In this document: positions 4,451-44,828 of the stretch, piece by piece
How positions within the stretch are numbered: the first letter of the stretch is position 1
Layout of the letters: every line of letters starts with the position of its first letter
Source: Acutalibacteraceae bacterium
Lineage (GTDB): Bacteria; Bacillota; Clostridia; Oscillospirales; Acutalibacteraceae
Length of the DNA stretch: 64,000 bases
Reading direction: 5' to 3'
NCBI GenBank assembly: GCA_051881295.1
Contig: JBJEPP010000106.1
Location: forward strand, 8,375 to 72,374
Notes under the pieces: generated by a model
What the model saw: only the letters and a program-made list of their open reading frames with translations
What the model was told of the DNA's origin: nothing
Databases searched by the model: none
Made by a program: the position numbers and the translations under genes

Positions 4451-4506
4451 AGAACAGACAGTAATTCGAATTTTAAATACTTGAATTTACTGTCTGTTCT
4501 TTTTTA
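4451..4506. terminator. bidirectional intrinsic terminator
   Basis: 14-bp stem AGAACAGACAGTAA...TTACTGTCTGTTCT followed by T6; A-rich on the other side. Confidence 0.7.
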
Positions 4507-8287: not shown

Positions 8288-8411
8288 AATTCCATACCTT
8301 TCCGGTAATTCGTTTACCTTAAAAATAATCAAGTGTAATGATAACATAGAATATGTTGTTTTGCAATAATTTAACAGTAAAAATGTCTGTTTTTATCGTT
8401 ACTTTTTATAG

Positions 8412-9994: not shown

Positions 9995-10192
9995 ATCTGT
10001 CTGACAGCTAAAAGTCCACAGCGGGCTTTGCAAATATTTGGAAATGATAAGACCGATAGTAGTTCTAAAAATCAGAATTACCATCGGTCGATTTTTTTCG
10101 TTTGTTTATTCCTAAATAATAACTGCAACGCGAAGCAGTCATTACTTGCCTAAAGCGATAGCGGCTATTAGCTATTAGCTGTCGGCTGTTAT
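9995..10192. repeat. intergenic repeat element, copy A (7-nt periodic arms plus conserved central hairpin)
   Basis: Fills the whole gap between convergent guaB and sigE. GCT/AGC occurs in 7-nt register at 10164/10171/10178/10185 and at 10006/10013/10020. The hairpin and adjacent TAACTGCAACGCGAAGCA segment are homologous to copy B (40794-41138). Confidence 0.7.
10051..10098 (+). terminator. intrinsic terminator (part of repeat element A)
   Basis: GACCGATAGTAGTTCT-loop-AGAATTACCATCGGTC followed by T7. Confidence 0.7.
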
Positions 10193-38991: not shown

Positions 38992-39030
38992 ACAGCCGAC
39001 AGCTGATAGCGGTGAACGGTGAACAAGCTT
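38992..39030 (+). repeat. 7-nt periodic array, solo arm (copy C of the intergenic repeat family)
   Basis: Starts 1 nt after the tex stop: ACAGCCG ACAGCTG ATAGCGG TGAACGG TGAACAA GCTT. AGC/AAC in 7-nt register at 38994, 39001, 39008, 39015, 39022. Shares CAGCCGACAGCT with copies A and B. Confidence 0.65.
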
Positions 39031-39095: not shown

Positions 39096-40793
39096 ATGAA
39101 TGTTGTTATTTGCAGTATAAATTCTAAATATATACACTCTTCTCTTGCGCCGTGGTGTCTTTACGCAGGAGTGGGTGAGTATTGCAAAAAATCAATAAAT
39201 GTTACCGTAATAGAGGGTACTATTAACGAAGATATTAGGTTTGTTGCAAAAAGAATTACAAAGCTTTCACCTGATGCTATAGGCTTCTGCTGTTATATTT
39301 GGAATATAAATTTTGTATACAGCTTAATAAATTCGGTAAAAAAAGAACTCCCCAACTGTAAAATCATTTTGGGCGGTCCTGAGGTCAGTTATAACTGCGA
39401 AAGCATTTTAACAGAGCGAAAATATATTGATTATATTGTATCGGGCGAGGGCGAAAAATCCTTTCCGCAGCTTTTAAATTGCATTGAAAACGGCATAGAA
39501 CCTGAGAACATTGACGGTGTAAACTATAAATGCAAAAACGGTTTGCACCTTACTCCCCCTGCTATTTTAAAGGATGACCCTATATCACCTTATACAGAGG
39601 AATATTTTAACAACCTGAACGGCAGAATTACCTACATTGAAACAAGCAGAGGTTGTCCGTATTCTTGCGCCTTTTGCCTTTCGGGCAGGTGCGGCAAGGT
39701 TAGATTTTTTGATACTGAAAGAGCTAAGAAAGACATTATCACTCTTGCAAATTCAGGAACTAAAACCGTAAAATTTGTAGACAGGACCTTTAACTCCGAT
39801 AAAGCTCGTGCAAAAGAGCTTTACAGATTTATTATAGATAATTACAACAACGGAAATATCCCGCGGAATGTGTGTTTTCATTTTGAAATCGCAGGCGATA
39901 TTTTAGACCGGGAAACAATACAAATACTCACAACCGCACCAAAAGGCTTATTTCAGCTTGAAATCGGTATGCAAAGCTTTAACGAGAAAACCCTGAGCTG
40001 TATAAACAGAAAAACCGACACCGAAAAACTCAGAGAAAATATTTTAAAGCTTACCGAAAACCATAATATGCACATACATATTGACCTTATTGCCGGTTTG
40101 CCTTTTGAAGACTTTGAAAGCTTCAAAGAGAGCTTTAATATTGGTTTTTCGTTAAATTCAAATATGCTGCAGTTAGGTTTTTTAAAGCTTTTGCACGGCG
40201 CAGATATGCGTGAAAATCAAGAAAAATATGTATGTAAATTCAACAAAGAGCCTCCATACGAAGTTATTTCCACACCGTATTTGAGTGAACAGGAATTAAA
40301 AATTTTGCACGGCGTTGAAGACGCGGTTGACAGAATTTATAACAGCGGAAGATTTAAAAGGACTGTGGATTATGCTGTAAAAACAAGCGGTGTTTCTCCT
40401 TTTGACTTTTTCTTAGGTTTTTCAAAATTCATAGAGAGAGTAAGCACTGAAAAGATTACATTAGATAAATATACGGAGCTTTTATTTAACTATGTTAAGA
40501 CATTAAAAAACATTAAAGCAGACGAACTTCGCGATATTATGGTATGCGACAGGCTCTCTACTAACGCATCGGGCAAAATACCCGAAATTTTAAAGGTTTA
40601 TGATAAAAGGCTGAAAAAATACAAAGCATTTCTGAACAACAGTGAAGAATATAAGCAAAATCAAAAATCAGTCAGGGGTGTTGCTATACTCTATTCACAA
40701 AACAAGCTGGTTTATGTTGATTACTTTAATGATCACGGCGTTGACGGAGAGTACGAGTTGAAGTTTGTAGATATAAATTTGCTTTGCGAATAG
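39096..40793 (+). CDS. B12-binding-domain radical SAM protein (DUF4080-type C-terminus)
   Basis: N-terminal B12-like domain, CPYSCAFC radical SAM cluster motif, long C-terminal extension. ATG at 39096 (MNVVICSINSKYIH) follows ACGGAG. Confidence 0.75.
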   Translation: MNVVICSINSKYIHSSLAPWCLYAGVGEYCKKSINVTVIEGTINEDIRFVAKRITKLSPDAIGFCCYIWNINFVYSLINSVKKELPNCKIILGGPEVSYNCESILTERKYIDYIVSGEGEKSFPQLLNCIENGIEPENIDGVNYKCKNGLHLTPPAILKDDPISPYTEEYFNNLNGRITYIETSRGCPYSCAFCLSGRCGKVRFFDTERAKKDIITLANSGTKTVKFVDRTFNSDKARAKELYRFIIDNYNNGNIPRNVCFHFEIAGDILDRETIQILTTAPKGLFQLEIGMQSFNEKTLSCINRKTDTEKLRENILKLTENHNMHIHIDLIAGLPFEDFESFKESFNIGFSLNSNMLQLGFLKLLHGADMRENQEKYVCKFNKEPPYEVISTPYLSEQELKILHGVEDAVDRIYNSGRFKRTVDYAVKTSGVSPFDFFLGFSKFIERVSTEKITLDKYTELLFNYVKTLKNIKADELRDIMVCDRLSTNASGKIPEILKVYDKRLKKYKAFLNNSEEYKQNQKSVRGVAILYSQNKLVYVDYFNDHGVDGEYELKFVDINLLCE

Positions 40794-41138
40794 TAGCCTT
40801 TGCGAGCCGACAGCATATTCAGCTAACAGCCGACAGCTAACAGCTAATAGCTAATAGCTTGCTGTCGCGTGAGGGTAGATATAAATGCTACGCGTTACAG
40901 TTAATGGCTTGTACTTAAACTTCTTTTCACTAAAATATTAAAGATAAAAATTCAACCGATAGTAACTCTTTTTAGAATTACTATCGGTCTTATCTTTTCT
41001 ACATACTTGAAAAGCCAATCATTTTTTATAATTTTCGATTTTCATACTGCGAAGCATACACATTTTATTTTACGCGAAGCCGCTGTTAGCTGTCGGCTGT
41101 TAGCTGAACACGCTGTGGGCTGTATTTTAATAAAAATA
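40794..41138. repeat. intergenic repeat element, copy B: 39-bp inverted repeats (36/39) flanking a conserved hairpin
   Basis: Left arm 40806-40844 is GCCGACAGCATATTCAGCTAACAGCCGACAGCTAACAGC. The reverse complement of 41082-41120 is GCCCACAGCGTGTTCAGCTAACAGCCGACAGCTAACAGC. The arms are 237 nt apart. AGC is in exact 7-nt register at 40821/28/35/42/49/56. Confidence 0.8.
40954..40995. terminator. bidirectional terminator hairpin (centre of repeat copy B)
   Basis: AACCGATAGTAACTCT-loop-AGAATTACTATCGGT with T-rich flanks on both strands. Roughly 85% identical by eye to the hairpin at 10046-10090, in opposite orientation. Confidence 0.6.
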
Positions 41139-44100
41139 TTATTTAAAATACTTAACCGCATTTCTGAACATACCAATATCGTAATTGCCTTCAACATTTT
41201 TGTAAAGGCCTTCACCGATACGCTCGCTGTGACCCATTTTACCGAATACTCTGCCGTCAGGCGAAGTAATACCCTCTATAGCGTAAGCGGAATCGTTAGG
41301 ATTAAAATGAATATCGCTTGTAGCGTTGCCGTTTAAGTCAACATACTGTGTAGCAATTTGTCCGTTCTCGGCAAGCTTCATAATAAGCTCTTCGCTTGCT
41401 AAAAATCTGCCCTCGCCGTGCGAAATAGGCACATTGTAAACATCGCCTACATTTGTTTCTGCAAGCCACGGAGATTTGTTGGAAGCAATACGGGTTCTTA
41501 CAATTCTTGACTGATGGCGTGCGATAGTGTTGTAAGTAAGTGTCGGGCAAGAATCATCGGTATCTATAATTTTACCGTAAGGCACTAAACCGAGTTTAAT
41601 AAGAGCCTGGAAGCCGTTACAAATACCGCACATTAAGCCGTCTCTGTTATCTAAAAGGTCTGTAACACCCTCTTTAACTGCACTGTTCCTGAAGAACGCG
41701 GTAATGAATTTACCTGAGCCGTCAGGCTCGTCACCTCCGCTGAAGCCGCCCGGAATGAATACCATTTGAGCGTCTTTCAACTGTTTTGCGAAGTATTCAA
41801 CGCTTTCTGTAATTGCAGAAGATGTAAGGTTTTTAACCACTATAATTTCAGGCTCTGCACCTGCGTCACGCATAGCTTTAGCACTGTCAAATTCGCAGTT
41901 TGTACCCGGGAATGCAGGAATAAGCACTTTAGGCTTTGCAACCTTAATCGCAGGGGCTTTACGCTCTGTTGCATTGAATTCAAAGTTTTTAACAGGTGAG
42001 TTGCTGTCTTTAATATTGCAACTGTAAACACTTTCTAACTTATCCTCATAAATACCGAGAATTTCTTTAGCGGAAACGCTTTCACCGTTAAATACAAACT
42101 CTTCTTTAGCAGTTACTGTACCAACGAATGTTGCACCCTCAATTTCTTCACTACATTCAAGCAGGAATGAAGCGTAGTTGTATTTGAAAATATCTTCTAC
42201 AGTAAGTTTACCGTTAAATTCAAAGCCGAAGCCGTTACCGAAAGCCATTTTCATAACTGCTTCGCCGATACCGCCAAGACCCAAAGTGTAAGCGGATACA
42301 GCTTTTTTGCTTCTTAAAAGATTGCAAACAGTATGAAATAATTTAATAAGGCTTTCTGTTTCAGGTAAATTATTCTCATCAAATTTCGGTGAAAGCATAT
42401 AAACCTTGTTCCCTGCATTTTTAAATTCAGGTGAAACAATATTTTCAACCTTATCGGTTGTAACCGCAAACGAAACGAGTGTAGGCGGAACATCTAAATC
42501 CTCAAAAGTACCGCTCATGGAGTCTTTACCGCCGATTGAGCCTATACCTAATTCTTTTTGAGCCTCGAAAGCGCCGAGAAGAGCCGCAAGAGGTTTACCC
42601 CAACGCTTGCCGTCTTTACCGGGCGACTCAAAATACTCTTGGAATGTTAAGTAAACATCTTTAAATTCGGCACCTGATGCAATAAGCTTTGAAACAGATT
42701 CAACAACCGCTAAATATGCGCCGTGATACTGGCTTTTTTCCATAATAAACGGATTATAGCCCCAAGCCATAAGAGAGCAATCGTTAGTATGCTTCTTTTC
42801 AACAGAAATTTTCTGTACCATAGCCTGTATAGGCGTCAACTGATTTTTACCGCCAAAGGGCATAAGAACAGTGCCCGCACCGATAGTTGAGTCAAAACGC
42901 TCCGAAAGTCCGCGCTTTGAGCAAATGTTAAGGTCGTCTGCTGTGGCTTTAAGATTTTCCGTAAATGTACCTGAAATCTCTTTTTCATAAGATTCAGGAG
43001 CTTCGGGAGTAATTGTAATATGTTTATCTGCGCCGTTTGAGTTAAGAAAATCACGGCTGATATCAACAATTTTCTTGCCGTTCCAATTCATTACAAGCCG
43101 CGGACTTTCCGTAACAACCGCAACAGGAACTGCATTTAAGTTTTCACTGCCTGCAAGCTTTAAGAATTTATCTACATCCTCTTTTTCTACAACAACTGCC
43201 ATTCTCTCTTGTGACTCTGAAATAGCAAGCTCTGTACCGTCAAGACCCTCATACTTTTTAGGAACTGCGTTAAGGTCAATTTCAAGACCGTCTGCCAATT
43301 CGCCTATTGCAACAGAAACACCGCCTGCGCCAAAGTCGTTACAGCGTTTAATCATTCTTGTTGCTTCTTTGTTTCTGAACAATCTTTGAAGCTTTCTTTC
43401 TTCGGGAGCGTTACCCTTTTGTACCTCGGCACCGCATGTTTCAAGAGATTCTGCAGTGTGCTTTTTAGATGAGCCTGTAGCACCGCCGCAACCGTCACGG
43501 CCGGTAGAACCGCCCAAAAGAATAACTATATCCCCCGGATCGGGACATTCTCTGCGAACATTCTCCTGCGGAGCGGCGGCAACAACAGCGCCTATCTCCA
43601 TACGCTTTGCGGCATAGCCGGGATGGTAAATTTCGTCAACAATACCTGTTGCAAGACCGATTTGGTTGCCGTAAGAAGAATAGCCTGCAGCGGCGGTTGT
43701 AACAATTTTGCGCTGCGGCAGCTTGCCTTTTATAGTTTCACTGACAGGCTTTAACGGGTCTGCCGCACCTGTAACACGCATAGCGCCGTAAACATAAGCT
43801 CTGCCTGAAAGAGGGTCGCGAATAGCACCGCCGATGCAAGTTGCGGCACCGCCGAACGGCTCGATTTCTGTCGGATGATTGTGTGTTTCGTTTTTGAAAA
43901 GAAGAAGCCAATCTTCTTTTTCACCGTCCACCTCAATTTGCATTTTAACAGTACATGCATTGATTTCTTCGGACTCATCGAGTTTTGGAAGCTTGCCGTT
44001 TACTTTTAAATATTTAACGGCAACGGTAGCCAAATCCATAAGGCAAATCGGCTTTGTTCTGTTTAATTCTTTTCTTACTGAAATATAGTCGTTATACGCT

Positions 44101-44828
44101 TTTTGTAAAAGCTCGTCCTCAAATTTAACATCGTCTATAACAGTTAAGAATGTTGTGTGACGGCAATGGTCAGACCAGTATGTATCTATCATTCTGATTT
44201 CTGTAATAGTTGGGTCGCGGTGCTCGCCTTTAAAATAATCCTGACAAAAAGCAATGTCATCCGCATCCATAGCAAGGCTGTATTCCTTAACGAAGTTTTC
44301 AAGACCCTCTCTGTCCAGGTCGATAAATCCGTTTAAAGTTTTTACCTCGGTAGGAATATCGTATTTCATAGCAAGTGTTTCGGGTTTTTCTAAAACAGCC
44401 TCACGAGCCTCTACAGGGTTGATTACATATTTTTTAATTTCTGCAATATCGTCACTTGTTAAATTGCCGTAAAGGGCATAAACCTTTGCAGATTTAACTG
44501 TAGGGCGGTCCCCTTGTGATATAATTTGAATACACTGCGCCGCAGAATCTGCACGCTGATCAAACTGACCAGGTAAATATTCTACAGCAAATACCGTTGC
44601 ACCGCTAAGCTCTACGCTGTCGCTTGCAATATCGAGCTGTGGCTCCGAGAATACGGTTTTTACGGCATAGTCGAAAAGCTCTTTTGTAATATTTTCTGCA
44701 TCGTATCTGTTTATAACTCGAACATCTGTAAGATTTTTAATGCCTAAAAGATTTCTTGCATCGCTTAAAAGAGACTTAGCTTCATTTGCAAGCTCTTTCT
44801 TTTTTTCAACAAAAATTCTGTATACCAT
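41139..44828 (-). CDS. purL: phosphoribosylformylglycinamidine synthase, single-chain (PurL with fused glutaminase)
   Basis: 1229 aa with FGAM synthase domains. C-terminal type-1 glutaminase retains its Cys (LMCGICNGFQAL). Confidence 0.9.
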   Translation of the reverse strand: MVYRIFVEKKKELANEAKSLLSDARNLLGIKNLTDVRVINRYDAENITKELFDYAVKTVFSEPQLDIASDSVELSGATVFAVEYLPGQFDQRADSAAQCIQIISQGDRPTVKSAKVYALYGNLTSDDIAEIKKYVINPVEAREAVLEKPETLAMKYDIPTEVKTLNGFIDLDREGLENFVKEYSLAMDADDIAFCQDYFKGEHRDPTITEIRMIDTYWSDHCRHTTFLTVIDDVKFEDELLQKAYNDYISVRKELNRTKPICLMDLATVAVKYLKVNGKLPKLDESEEINACTVKMQIEVDGEKEDWLLLFKNETHNHPTEIEPFGGAATCIGGAIRDPLSGRAYVYGAMRVTGAADPLKPVSETIKGKLPQRKIVTTAAAGYSSYGNQIGLATGIVDEIYHPGYAAKRMEIGAVVAAAPQENVRRECPDPGDIVILLGGSTGRDGCGGATGSSKKHTAESLETCGAEVQKGNAPEERKLQRLFRNKEATRMIKRCNDFGAGGVSVAIGELADGLEIDLNAVPKKYEGLDGTELAISESQERMAVVVEKEDVDKFLKLAGSENLNAVPVAVVTESPRLVMNWNGKKIVDISRDFLNSNGADKHITITPEAPESYEKEISGTFTENLKATADDLNICSKRGLSERFDSTIGAGTVLMPFGGKNQLTPIQAMVQKISVEKKHTNDCSLMAWGYNPFIMEKSQYHGAYLAVVESVSKLIASGAEFKDVYLTFQEYFESPGKDGKRWGKPLAALLGAFEAQKELGIGSIGGKDSMSGTFEDLDVPPTLVSFAVTTDKVENIVSPEFKNAGNKVYMLSPKFDENNLPETESLIKLFHTVCNLLRSKKAVSAYTLGLGGIGEAVMKMAFGNGFGFEFNGKLTVEDIFKYNYASFLLECSEEIEGATFVGTVTAKEEFVFNGESVSAKEILGIYEDKLESVYSCNIKDSNSPVKNFEFNATERKAPAIKVAKPKVLIPAFPGTNCEFDSAKAMRDAGAEPEIIVVKNLTSSAITESVEYFAKQLKDAQMVFIPGGFSGGDEPDGSGKFITAFFRNSAVKEGVTDLLDNRDGLMCGICNGFQALIKLGLVPYGKIIDTDDSCPTLTYNTIARHQSRIVRTRIASNKSPWLAETNVGDVYNVPISHGEGRFLASEELIMKLAENGQIATQYVDLNGNATSDIHFNPNDSAYAIEGITSPDGRVFGKMGHSERIGEGLYKNVEGNYDIGMFRNAVKYFK

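Follow-up and report, generated by a model that had tools for sequence, protein, structure and literature searches.

Heptamer-armed palindromic elements downstream of stop codons in an Acutalibacteraceae genome: a spacer between a radical SAM gene and purL as a probable gene-less relative of PF05635 cassettes

Introduction

What kind of sequence is a spacer that reads as a symmetric cassette, with inverted arms around a central hairpin? The question is raised by the 345 nt that separate a B12-binding radical SAM/DUF4080 gene from the convergent purL gene in a 64,000-nt window (the whole stretch of DNA that was analysed, positions 8,375 to 72,374 of contig JBJEPP010000106.1) from an Acutalibacteraceae bacterium. 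The original prediction, made from the sequence without database searches, offered two explanations: an element resembling a miniature inverted-repeat transposable element (MITE), or a module of the 3' untranslated region (3'-UTR) read by an oligomeric nucleic-acid-binding protein, with HutP as an analogy. We consider the spacer to be, with a probability of about 0.6, a complete but gene-less member of a family of modular palindromic elements found throughout the genome, a relative of cassettes that carry a gene of Pfam family PF05635, and the bearer of a bidirectional terminator that both genes share.

Anatomy of the spacer

The radical SAM gene (39096-40793, plus strand, TAG stop at 40791-40793; Pfam PF02310, PF04055 and PF13311) aligns to its relatives from about residue 29 of a longer open reading frame (ORF). 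On the other side of the spacer is purL (41139-44828, minus strand, TAA stop at 41139-41141), encoding an FGAM synthase of 1229 aa with the Pfam domains GATase_5, AIRS_C and FGAR-AT_linker. The spacer arms, at 40805-40844 and 41082-41121, form a 40-nt inverted repeat that is 93% complementary. The symmetric cassette of the original prediction, with 39-mer arms that differ at three positions (G/C, A/G and A/G) and lie 237 nt apart, is thus present in the sequence. Its claim that a sense array follows closely on each of the convergent stop codons also holds, the left arm starting 11 nt 3' of the radical SAM TAG and the right arm ending 17 nt from the purL stop.

The left arm opens with an outer unit and linker (AGCCGACAGC ATATTC, 40805-40820, plus strand, within the inverted repeat), the family consensus of which, ACAGC-RTRTTC, is found ahead of many arrays genome-wide. 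There follows a heptamer array, here called A-type (40821-40858, plus strand, sense relative to the radical SAM gene), in which AGC recurs in exact 7-nt register as AGCTAAC, AGCCGAC, AGCTAAC, AGCTAAT, AGCTAAT and a final AGC. The register had been pointed out before, and no run of five AGC units with period 7 occurs in shuffles of the window. Inward of the array lie a GC-clamped connector module, B (TTGCTGTCGC-N18-GCTACGCG, 40859-40894, plus strand, ~20 copies), and module C, an A-rich approach to the hairpin (40895-40953, plus strand) that is homologous in ~20 copies. The central hairpin, H1 (40954-40989), has the form AACCGATAGTAACTCT-TTTT-AGAATTACTATCGGTC with a 16-bp stem, and is a putative bidirectional intrinsic terminator flanked by A-rich sequence on its 5' side and T-rich sequence on its 3' side (40990-41001).

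To the right of the hairpin is a spacer module (41002-41048) common to ~5-6 copies, including those on contigs C17 and C61 of the source assembly, and then module B' (41049-41081, minus strand; reverse complement GGCTTCGCG-N17-GCTTCGC), which has the same frame as left B and whose connector GCGAAGCC is conserved at 0.95. The right A-type array (41082-41105, minus strand, sense relative to purL) reads on the reverse complement as AGCTAAC, AGCCGAC, AGCTAAC and AGC, and the arm closes with its linker and outer unit (41106-41121, minus strand, within the inverted repeat; reverse complement AGCCCACAGC GTGTTC). Both arms reach further inward than previously noticed, by a B module of ~35 nt. When the entire spacer is folded it gives a single long hairpin of -125.7 kcal/mol (shuffles: -71.7 +/- 4.5; z = -12), in which, from the outside in, the arrays pair, next the B modules, then the central hairpin. 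The 237-nt interior contains no ORF.

A dispersed, modular family

The source assembly is a metagenome-assembled genome (MAG) of 1.87 Mb, 38% GC and 111 contigs that is ~91% complete; C-numbers refer to its contigs. Its relatives place it among the gut Acutalibacteraceae (Oscillospirales). It contains 84 A-type arrays (AGCNNAY) with at least two units, 59 of them with at least three units plus AGC, while a shuffled genome contains none. The motif is thus far from being confined to three spacers, an outcome that the original prediction had allowed for. The arrays are dispersed over ~50 contigs, and 81 of the 84 lie outside called ORFs. Among their units AGCTAAC occurs 69 times, AGCTAAT 58, AGCCGAC 41 and AGCCCAC 9. 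The size range is narrow, with four AGC triplets in 23 arrays, five in 33 and six in 3, and within the unit variation is found at positions 4, 5 and 7, with AGC and the A at position 6 conserved. A-type arrays are one family among several: Tandem Repeats Finder at a low threshold reports 460 period-7 arrays in the MAG, with two unit families dominant, and the same spacers also hold arrays of AATGAAA (period 7) and of GTGAACAA/GTGAACGA (period 8). In total, ~155 of 863 intergenic regions contain at least 40 nt of sequence that is repeated at least five times. This amounts to ~30 kb, or ~12% of intergenic DNA, and many contigs terminate in it.

The elements follow a grammar, given here with all arrays in register: after a stop codon there may be an outer unit with its RTRTTC linker, and then come an A-type array and a connector, either GGCTTCGC or TTGCTGTCGC. 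Next is a GTGAAC array, an AATGAAA array or a B module (..TCGC-N17/18-GCTWCGC), and last the central hairpin, beyond which the whole is mirrored. An element consists, from the outside in, of inverted arrays of 3-5 AGCNNAY heptamers, the GC-clamped connector module and a central hairpin of 15-16 bp. Plus and minus arrays form 16 pairs, of which 15 are gene-less, with mutually homologous interiors of 150-480 nt, and one encloses a PF05635 gene (interior ~970 nt). Near-full-length copies of the spacer architecture are found at C61:2657-2993 (80% over 330 nt) and at C17:7515-7796 (86% over 279 nt, left array truncated), both between co-directional genes, unlike the convergent spacer. Across ~20 copies aligned to the spacer, identity is 0.94-0.97 in the stem, 0.82-0.95 in arrays and connectors, and 0.59-0.78 in the spacer modules, module C being the least conserved part. 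Family copies are 75-98% identical to one another, suggesting that the family has spread over a long period, and the modules are shuffled combinatorially and nested.

Another account would be that arrays arise in place by replication slippage, and that the likeness between loci reflects mutational preference and gene conversion, with no moving element. Heptamers are, according to Mrazek 2007 as summarised in PMC4679880, the commonest unit of bacterial long simple sequence repeats, for which polymerase slippage was proposed. The absence of target-site duplications and an orthologous array that differs in unit number and type between two congeners (both described below) fit this account. However, slippage cannot produce the ~250 nt of non-repetitive modules (B, C, hairpin and right spacer) that are homologous at ~20 loci, let alone near-full-length copies of a 330-nt cassette such as those on C61 and C17, and the joining of arrays to such modules argues for duplicative spread rather than slippage alone. 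Furthermore, the three-unit word AGCTAAC-AGCCGAC-AGCTAAY occurs 31 times in the MAG and is also found in 54 unrelated contigs, and the arrays are short and tightly sized. We therefore regard in-place slippage as improbable, and return to dispersed copying of a modular element as the preferred reading.

Three further members of the family lie within the window. A solo set of A-type and GTGAAC-type units with neither partner arm nor hairpin (38994-39030, plus strand) begins 2 nt past the stop codon of tex. An H1 hairpin (10052-10088) and an A-type array (10164-10187) form a member at 10052-10187 on the minus strand, the array starting 5 nt past the stop of a sigma-factor gene on that strand. An H2-subfamily hairpin, AACAGACAGTAATTC...GAATTTACTGTCTGTT, is located at 4454-4497 (C106:12828-12871).

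Elsewhere in the MAG, a 2.2-kb stretch at C88:17026-19303 has no ORF of at least 90 aa, and holds two tandem AATGAAA-armed elements of ~420 nt. These are ~95% identical to copies on other contigs and are the youngest-looking members of the family. At C12:3090-3575 a GTGAAC-type array apparently has an A-armed element within it (G> [A> M> hairpin <M <A] G>), so arrays of one family may be where elements of another land. A comparable case, of small dispersed repeats located within heptamer arrays of cyanobacteria, was reportedly described by Elhai et al. in 2008.

Position of the arrays relative to genes

Position and orientation are far from random, as a tally proposed with the original prediction makes clear. 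Sense arrays lie no more than 35 nt downstream of the stop codon of a called ORF in 43 cases, in 24 of them within 5 nt, whereas no antisense array is found within 35 nt of a stop (the closest is at 68 nt). Eleven arrays overlap the stop codon itself. Three unrelated ORFs, at C72:7088-8062, C3:5428-5901 and C109:4066-4815, end in ...ANS* or ...ANSIFS* encoded by the array (GCTAACAGCTAA); the ending of ORFs inside an array suggests that the native C-terminus and stop were replaced or extended by the repeat. By this rule of position, the family would have been copied into DNA directly after stop codons at ~155 sites.

The same rule is what would be expected of sites in RNA or single-stranded DNA of the 3'-UTR, with each subunit of an oligomeric protein contacting one triplet (AGC or NAG) in a series spaced every 7 nt. 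Such contacts would then control termination, mRNA stability or translation termination, and the family would be a regulon and not selfish DNA. Every near-stop array is in the sense orientation, the range of array sizes is narrower than slippage alone would give, the conserved AGC and A at position 6 contrast with variable positions 4, 5 and 7, and arrays and connectors are better conserved than the adjacent spacers. On the other hand, where genes are co-directional the far arm is antisense and lies 50-230 nt upstream of the next start codon, which is the arrangement predicted for a symmetric DNA unit anchored at the 3' end of a gene and not for a strand-specific signal. Moreover, the flanking genes across the family are unrelated housekeeping genes with no common theme. 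With the evidence from partner genes, array turnover and homologous proteins that is given in the following sections, we think it unlikely that the arrays are primarily such sites.

A role for the arrays as insulators with a stop codon in all frames was also considered and rejected: all three sense frames are closed by no more than 9 of the 84 arrays, and all six frames by 6. Within the window, all-frame closure holds only for the left spacer array.

The central hairpin

The original prediction described the hairpin as a bidirectional terminator and as a repeated sequence in itself. Its sequence is indeed repeated, with 72 copies in the genome that fall into two subfamilies, ACCGATAGTAAC...GTTACTATCGGT and AACAGATAGTAAATTCAAA...TTTGAATTACTATCTGTT, and in nearly all of them the 5' flank is rich in A and the 3' flank in T. 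A check for covariation, which had also been proposed, shows that 9 of 16 stem pairs retain pairing through two-sided, compensatory changes in an alignment of 34 copies. In the spacer the stem has 16 pairs, 5 of them G-C, and the stem-loop is accompanied by both a T-run and a preceding A-run, the arrangement of a bidirectional intrinsic terminator. A consensus scan calls a terminator on the minus strand; the tail on the plus strand is CTTATCTTTTCT. From these features we infer that the hairpin is a bidirectional intrinsic terminator. The arrays of the spacer sit 3' of the stop codons, ~95 nt (left) and ~92 nt (right) from the hairpin, and the radical SAM and purL transcripts would each traverse a sense array and end at this shared structure.

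Searches for mobility partners

Target-site duplications, which the original prediction had proposed to look for, were not found outside the inverted-repeat ends of the 16 pairs, although the ends of the elements are fuzzy and very short duplications are possible. The absence of duplications makes mobilisation by a cut-and-paste DDE transposase unlikely. In the ~91%-complete assembly there were no matches to the RAYT family of Y1 transposases (PF01797; controls matched in 6 genomes), to HutP (PF09021; the Bacillus subtilis control was positive) or to reverse transcriptase (PF00078). No transposase was seen between arms of the family, where the only gene found is that of the PF05635 four-helix-bundle protein. 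No Rfam family was found for the spacer; a match to RsaJ is sub-threshold and attributable to chance (15 bits against a cut-off of 100). Several candidates were rejected on these grounds, namely a HutP-type reader, a system of repetitive extragenic palindromic (REP) sequences with a RAYT partner, and both retro-mobility by a resident reverse transcriptase and the identification of the PF05635 genes as Avd of a diversity-generating retroelement. The lack of a HutP gene also counts against reading the arrays as 3'-UTR binding sites, and leaves the HutP analogy of the original prediction without its protein.

Of the two explanations originally offered, the MITE-like element comes nearest. The family is dispersed and modular, its copies are bounded by inverted repeats and are 75-98% identical, and, as in a MITE, terminal inverted repeats delimit a short, non-coding, multi-copy sequence (~330 nt, with no coding capacity). 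What did not stand are the target-site duplications, the partner transposase or autonomous relative encoding one, and the random placement. A classical MITE or REP-type element that is mobilised in trans by a DDE or RAYT/IS200-like Y1 transposase encoded elsewhere could have escaped notice, given that the MAG is ~91% complete and that many contigs end in repeats, so that the partner element could be missed. It would nevertheless have to be reconciled with the lack of duplications at all 16 inverted pairs (the 15 gene-less and the one around a PF05635 gene), with the lack of a Y1/RAYT gene, with modules that are shuffled and nested and not transposed as a unit, with arms that are not matched pairs, and with a four-helix-bundle protein, not a transposase, as the only product encoded between such arms. 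We consider this the least credible of the alternatives and very unlikely. For the gene-less modular family that we favour, the mode of spread would be recombination or a switch of template, taking place at the arrays and connectors, or else a mechanism specific to the cassette.

Relation to PF05635 cassettes

A search for genes between distant arm pairs found an ORF of 135 aa at C65:25684-26091 that matches PF05635, '23S rRNA intervening-sequence protein', with 122.8 bits, and has a weak match to bAvd. The cassette in which it lies (C65:25576-26613) is enclosed by inverted A-type arrays and B-like modules. Its arms have the same unit set and outer motif as those of the spacer, and the resemblance extends to the B modules: left B of the spacer agrees with the arm modules of the cassette at 30-32 of 46 positions (z ~6 against shuffles) and right B at 25 of 42 (both sides z = 5-6), in the common frame GCT(G)TCGC-N17-TGCTWCGC. 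The spacer therefore has long inverted arms that pair into a stem through both arrays and B modules, and these arms are homologous to those of a gene-bearing cassette, although it has no PF05635 ORF between them. As its interior contains no ORF at all, the spacer can be at most a gene-less derivative of the PF05635 cassette. Because its arms are of the same kind as those of this Avd-related cassette, the relation may be roughly that of a MITE to its parent element.

The MAG has three PF05635 genes, two of which are enclosed by arms of the same families (A-type and AATGAAA-type, respectively), the third being at a contig end. The second gene (14750-15064 on C65) lies in C65:14150-15600 between AATGAAA-array arms that are duplicated in tandem, there being two on its left and, in inverted orientation, two on its right. 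A GGCTCGAC...GTCGAGCC hairpin is present in every one of them; such arms seem able to duplicate as units. The third gene (C68:8700-9330) is located just downstream of a tRNA gene and is preceded by a different kind of repeat arm, composed of units of ATGAAATA with a short GC hairpin; its right flank lies beyond the end of the contig.

The closest homologues of the protein with A-type arms are from other phyla (Muribaculaceae, 54% identity; Eremiobacteraceae, 47%; Terriglobales, 47%). All four of the cross-phylum homologues examined lie between inverted heptamer arrays that start at the stop codon of the upstream gene, with the arm units ACGTAAA; CGTGGTG with GAGTNCC; CGGCTTC; and AGCCAAG/AGCTAAC. 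Since homologues as close as 47-54% identity have unrelated units, a simple specificity of protein for unit was rejected, and this is a further point against 3'-UTR sites that are read by such a protein. At 28 PF05635 loci from other genera of the family (92 kb), all detected period-7 arrays are within ~180 nt of the PF05635 gene.

Two metagenome contigs provide related observations. On contig L155 a PF05635 gene lies directly inside an arm, and the upstream ORF ends ...DS* in the first AGCTAA unit. Among 27 comparison proteins, the L155 protein is closest to the A-armed protein of the MAG (75.5 bits, against 49.7 for the next). Contig L195, whose Tex is 68% identical, has a complete PF05635 cassette with CGTGGTG/GAGTNCC arms directly after the tex stop codon (1055-1200). 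In the window, the tex stop is followed by the solo A-type and GTGAAC-type array; the genes downstream differ, and the two may or may not be the same site.

There are structural grounds for regarding the protein as a possible reader of the arrays. The PDB entries of the PF05635 relatives 2gsc (Xanthomonas campestris) and 2rld each contain five chains, and Avd is a pentameric, positively charged barrel that is similar to S23 proteins and binds RNA (10.1101/2023.10.23.563531), which would also suit the 3'-UTR sites discussed above. A more ambitious and distinctly doubtful reading is that hairpins of heptamer arrays, together with the PF05635 gene, constitute one widespread and undescribed class in which the pentameric protein reads 4-5 arm units, one per subunit. 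In so doing the protein would mobilise, protect or process its own cassette and the many gene-less copies, a role compatible with the data. No literature was found that links the 'four helix bundle protein' to heptamer repeats.

Distribution in other genomes

A-type arrays are found in only a few of 24 congeners, while congeners carry other heptamer arrays after stop codons, with the units AGCAGAT, AGCAAAT, CTAACAC, AATGCAA and GTGGCAA. An orthologous array in two congeners measures 123 nt in one and 84 nt in the other and has different units, with flanks that are 89-94% identical compared with 63% in the array. Copy number therefore varies between related genomes, and conserved flanks around so changeable an array indicate fast turnover at a fixed position. 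Such turnover between sister species sits poorly with arrays maintained as protein-binding sites in 3'-UTRs. In a congener, an 11-unit array upstream of the tyrosyl-tRNA synthetase gene (locus L001, G021:C45:37500-37650) includes AGTGCAA, AACGCAA, AGCGCAA, AGCGCAA, AGCTAAC, AGCTAAT, AGCTGAC, AGCTGAC and AGCTGAT, sequences that grade into one another.

In 60 other genera of Acutalibacteraceae A-type arrays are essentially absent (1 match), suggesting that their expansion is specific to this lineage. Further afield, the exact 24-mer arm word AGCTAACAGCCGACAGCTAAYAGC was found on 54 metagenome contigs of 40-75% GC, mostly as inverted (hairpin) pairs a few nt past a stop codon; the number of matches expected by chance is, as a rough estimate that assumes ~10^12 searchable positions, well under one. 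That the same units are kept in genomes of 38% and of 60-75% GC, against composition, is a point in favour of the 3'-UTR sites. Neither of the two outcomes that the original prediction named as refuting it is observed: orientation and position are not random, and related arrays exist among congeners as well as in phyla unrelated to theirs. The C-terminus of the radical SAM protein had no match when metagenome contigs were scanned for it with a degenerate pattern.

Interpretation

Several observations weigh against the spacer being a gene-less relative of the PF05635 cassette that carries a working terminator. The link between gene and arms is recurrent but not universal: of the 28 PF05635 loci from other genera, clear inverted heptamer arms are present at 7 and partial ones at ~4 more, i.e. 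at ~7-11 of 28. With hidden Markov models, a PF05635 gene was detected on only 1 of the 54 contigs with the arm word. No recombinase or transposase activity is, to our knowledge, attributed to PF05635 proteins. The 24 congeners, in which the C-terminus of the radical SAM protein is 39-42% identical, are too distant for a comparison with an empty site, and an exact-protein look-up found no further assembly of this species. That transcripts cover the arrays and terminate at the hairpin is a prediction from the nucleotide sequence. Finally, in the gene-less elements a left arm is as similar to the right arms of other elements as to its own (permutation p = 0.22), and neither recent palindromic insertion nor selection on the pairing of arms is evident in these copies.

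For the spacer itself, the left arm has a better partner at another element (score 38, against 31 for its own right arm). As own arms are no better matched than foreign ones, the 36/39 match that drew attention to the locus is best seen as two near-consensus arms and not as a co-evolving pair. Co-evolution of arms within elements was accordingly rejected as a general explanation; the PF05635-bearing A-armed cassette on C65 is the only pair whose own arms are mutual best matches.

The arm match to the four-helix-bundle cassette nonetheless supplies a concrete candidate for a partner protein. The family provides ~70 predicted terminator hairpins and breaks the assembly at many contig ends, and is thus relevant to the annotation and binning of gut Acutalibacteraceae. 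If the doubtful wider class of arrays and PF05635 genes were real, it would explain why repeats of about four 7-nt units occur after stop codons across bacterial phyla, and why the same AGCTAAC-AGCCGAC-AGCTAAY word is present in a gut Firmicute of 38% GC and in soil bacteria of 60-75% GC, and it would give a role to the very common genes annotated as 'four helix bundle protein'.

Comparison with known systems

Heptamer repeats after stop codons have been reported since 1990, first as short tandemly repeated repetitive (STRR) sequences and later in papers of 2007 and 2015, but no origin or function has found acceptance. The closest parallel is provided by the heptamers of Xanthomonas (GGGAATC) and Nostoc (GGGGAYT) described by Rehm et al. 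2015 (PMC4692102), which lie 0-50 bp past the stop and on the coding strand, may overlap the stop, prefer four units and are not associated with insertion sequences. The arrays described here are likewise tandem 7-nt units at many intergenic loci, in a post-stop position and with about four units preferred. Rehm et al. attribute the preference for four units to the formation of G-quadruplexes (PMC4692102). Unlike the Xanthomonas and Nostoc repeats, AGCTAAC-type units are not G-rich, so that this explanation cannot apply to them, and the MAG is an unusually clear case of post-stop heptamer repeats for which the G-quadruplex account is ruled out. Two further differences are that the arrays here belong to a larger mosaic, in which they are combined with conserved modules that are not repetitive and with a shared hairpin of terminator type, and that they occur in a gut Firmicute of the Acutalibacteraceae, for which lineage no description was found.

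More broadly, the arrays can be compared with the STRR found in heterocystous cyanobacteria and with the long simple sequence repeats of Mrazek 2007, among which heptamers dominate. In common with these and with the repeats of Rehm et al., they have at least three tandem 7-nt units in numbers far above chance, strong intergenic enrichment, a post-stop sense position, and a copy number that varies between related genomes. The intergenic TAACTGA direct repeats (2-6 units per set) of marine Beggiatoaceae, Cyanobacteria and Bacteroidetes (MacGregor 2015, PMC4679880) resemble them in being abundant in some genomes and absent from close relatives, and in a patchy cross-phylum distribution that suggests horizontal spread without an evident mechanism. 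TAACTGA repeats, however, are mainly found just upstream of start codons and are direct, with one inverted case, whereas the arrays described here come after stop codons and in most cases have an inverted partner as the other arm of a pair.

Intervening sequences (IVS) in 23S rRNA genes, such as that of Coxiella burnetii, can carry an S23p (PF05635) ORF (Warrier et al. 2016, PMC4990558). Similarly, our elements look like selfish inserts whose inverted repeats form a long stem, and in C65:25576-26613 the loop holds a PF05635 ORF. The spacer differs from an IVS in having no ORF, in lying between protein genes and not in an rRNA helix, and in having heptamer arrays as arms. Bacterial interspersed mosaic elements (BIMEs) built from REP sequences, Correia elements and enterobacterial repetitive intergenic consensus (ERIC) sequences are mosaics of short modules in the 3' flanks of genes, present in hundreds of copies, with hairpins able to terminate or stabilise transcripts. 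The spacer family, too, is a mosaic of short modules that occur in variable combinations in 3' flanks between genes, with hairpins and likewise in hundreds of copies. It is unlike BIMEs in that no RAYT was found, no TA or other duplication is present, and the arms are tandem heptamers and not a single palindromic unit.

With the binding sites of HutP on hut mRNA and of TRAP on the trp leader, the arrays share a conserved triplet (NAG or AGC), a 4-nt spacer and 3-5 repeats, and the CAG/UAG spacing is formally present. A HutP site in the full sense has its 4-nt-spaced NAG triplets in a 5' leader overlapping a terminator. The arrays are not of this kind: they lie 3' of stop codons and not in a leader that competes with a terminator, and they would have dozens of unrelated target genes. 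The spacer family is best read as gene-less members of the known class of post-stop heptamer repeats that are related to the arms of PF05635 cassettes and have here been built up into a mosaic with a putative terminator, and its lineage-specific expansion and mosaic elaboration are previously undescribed.

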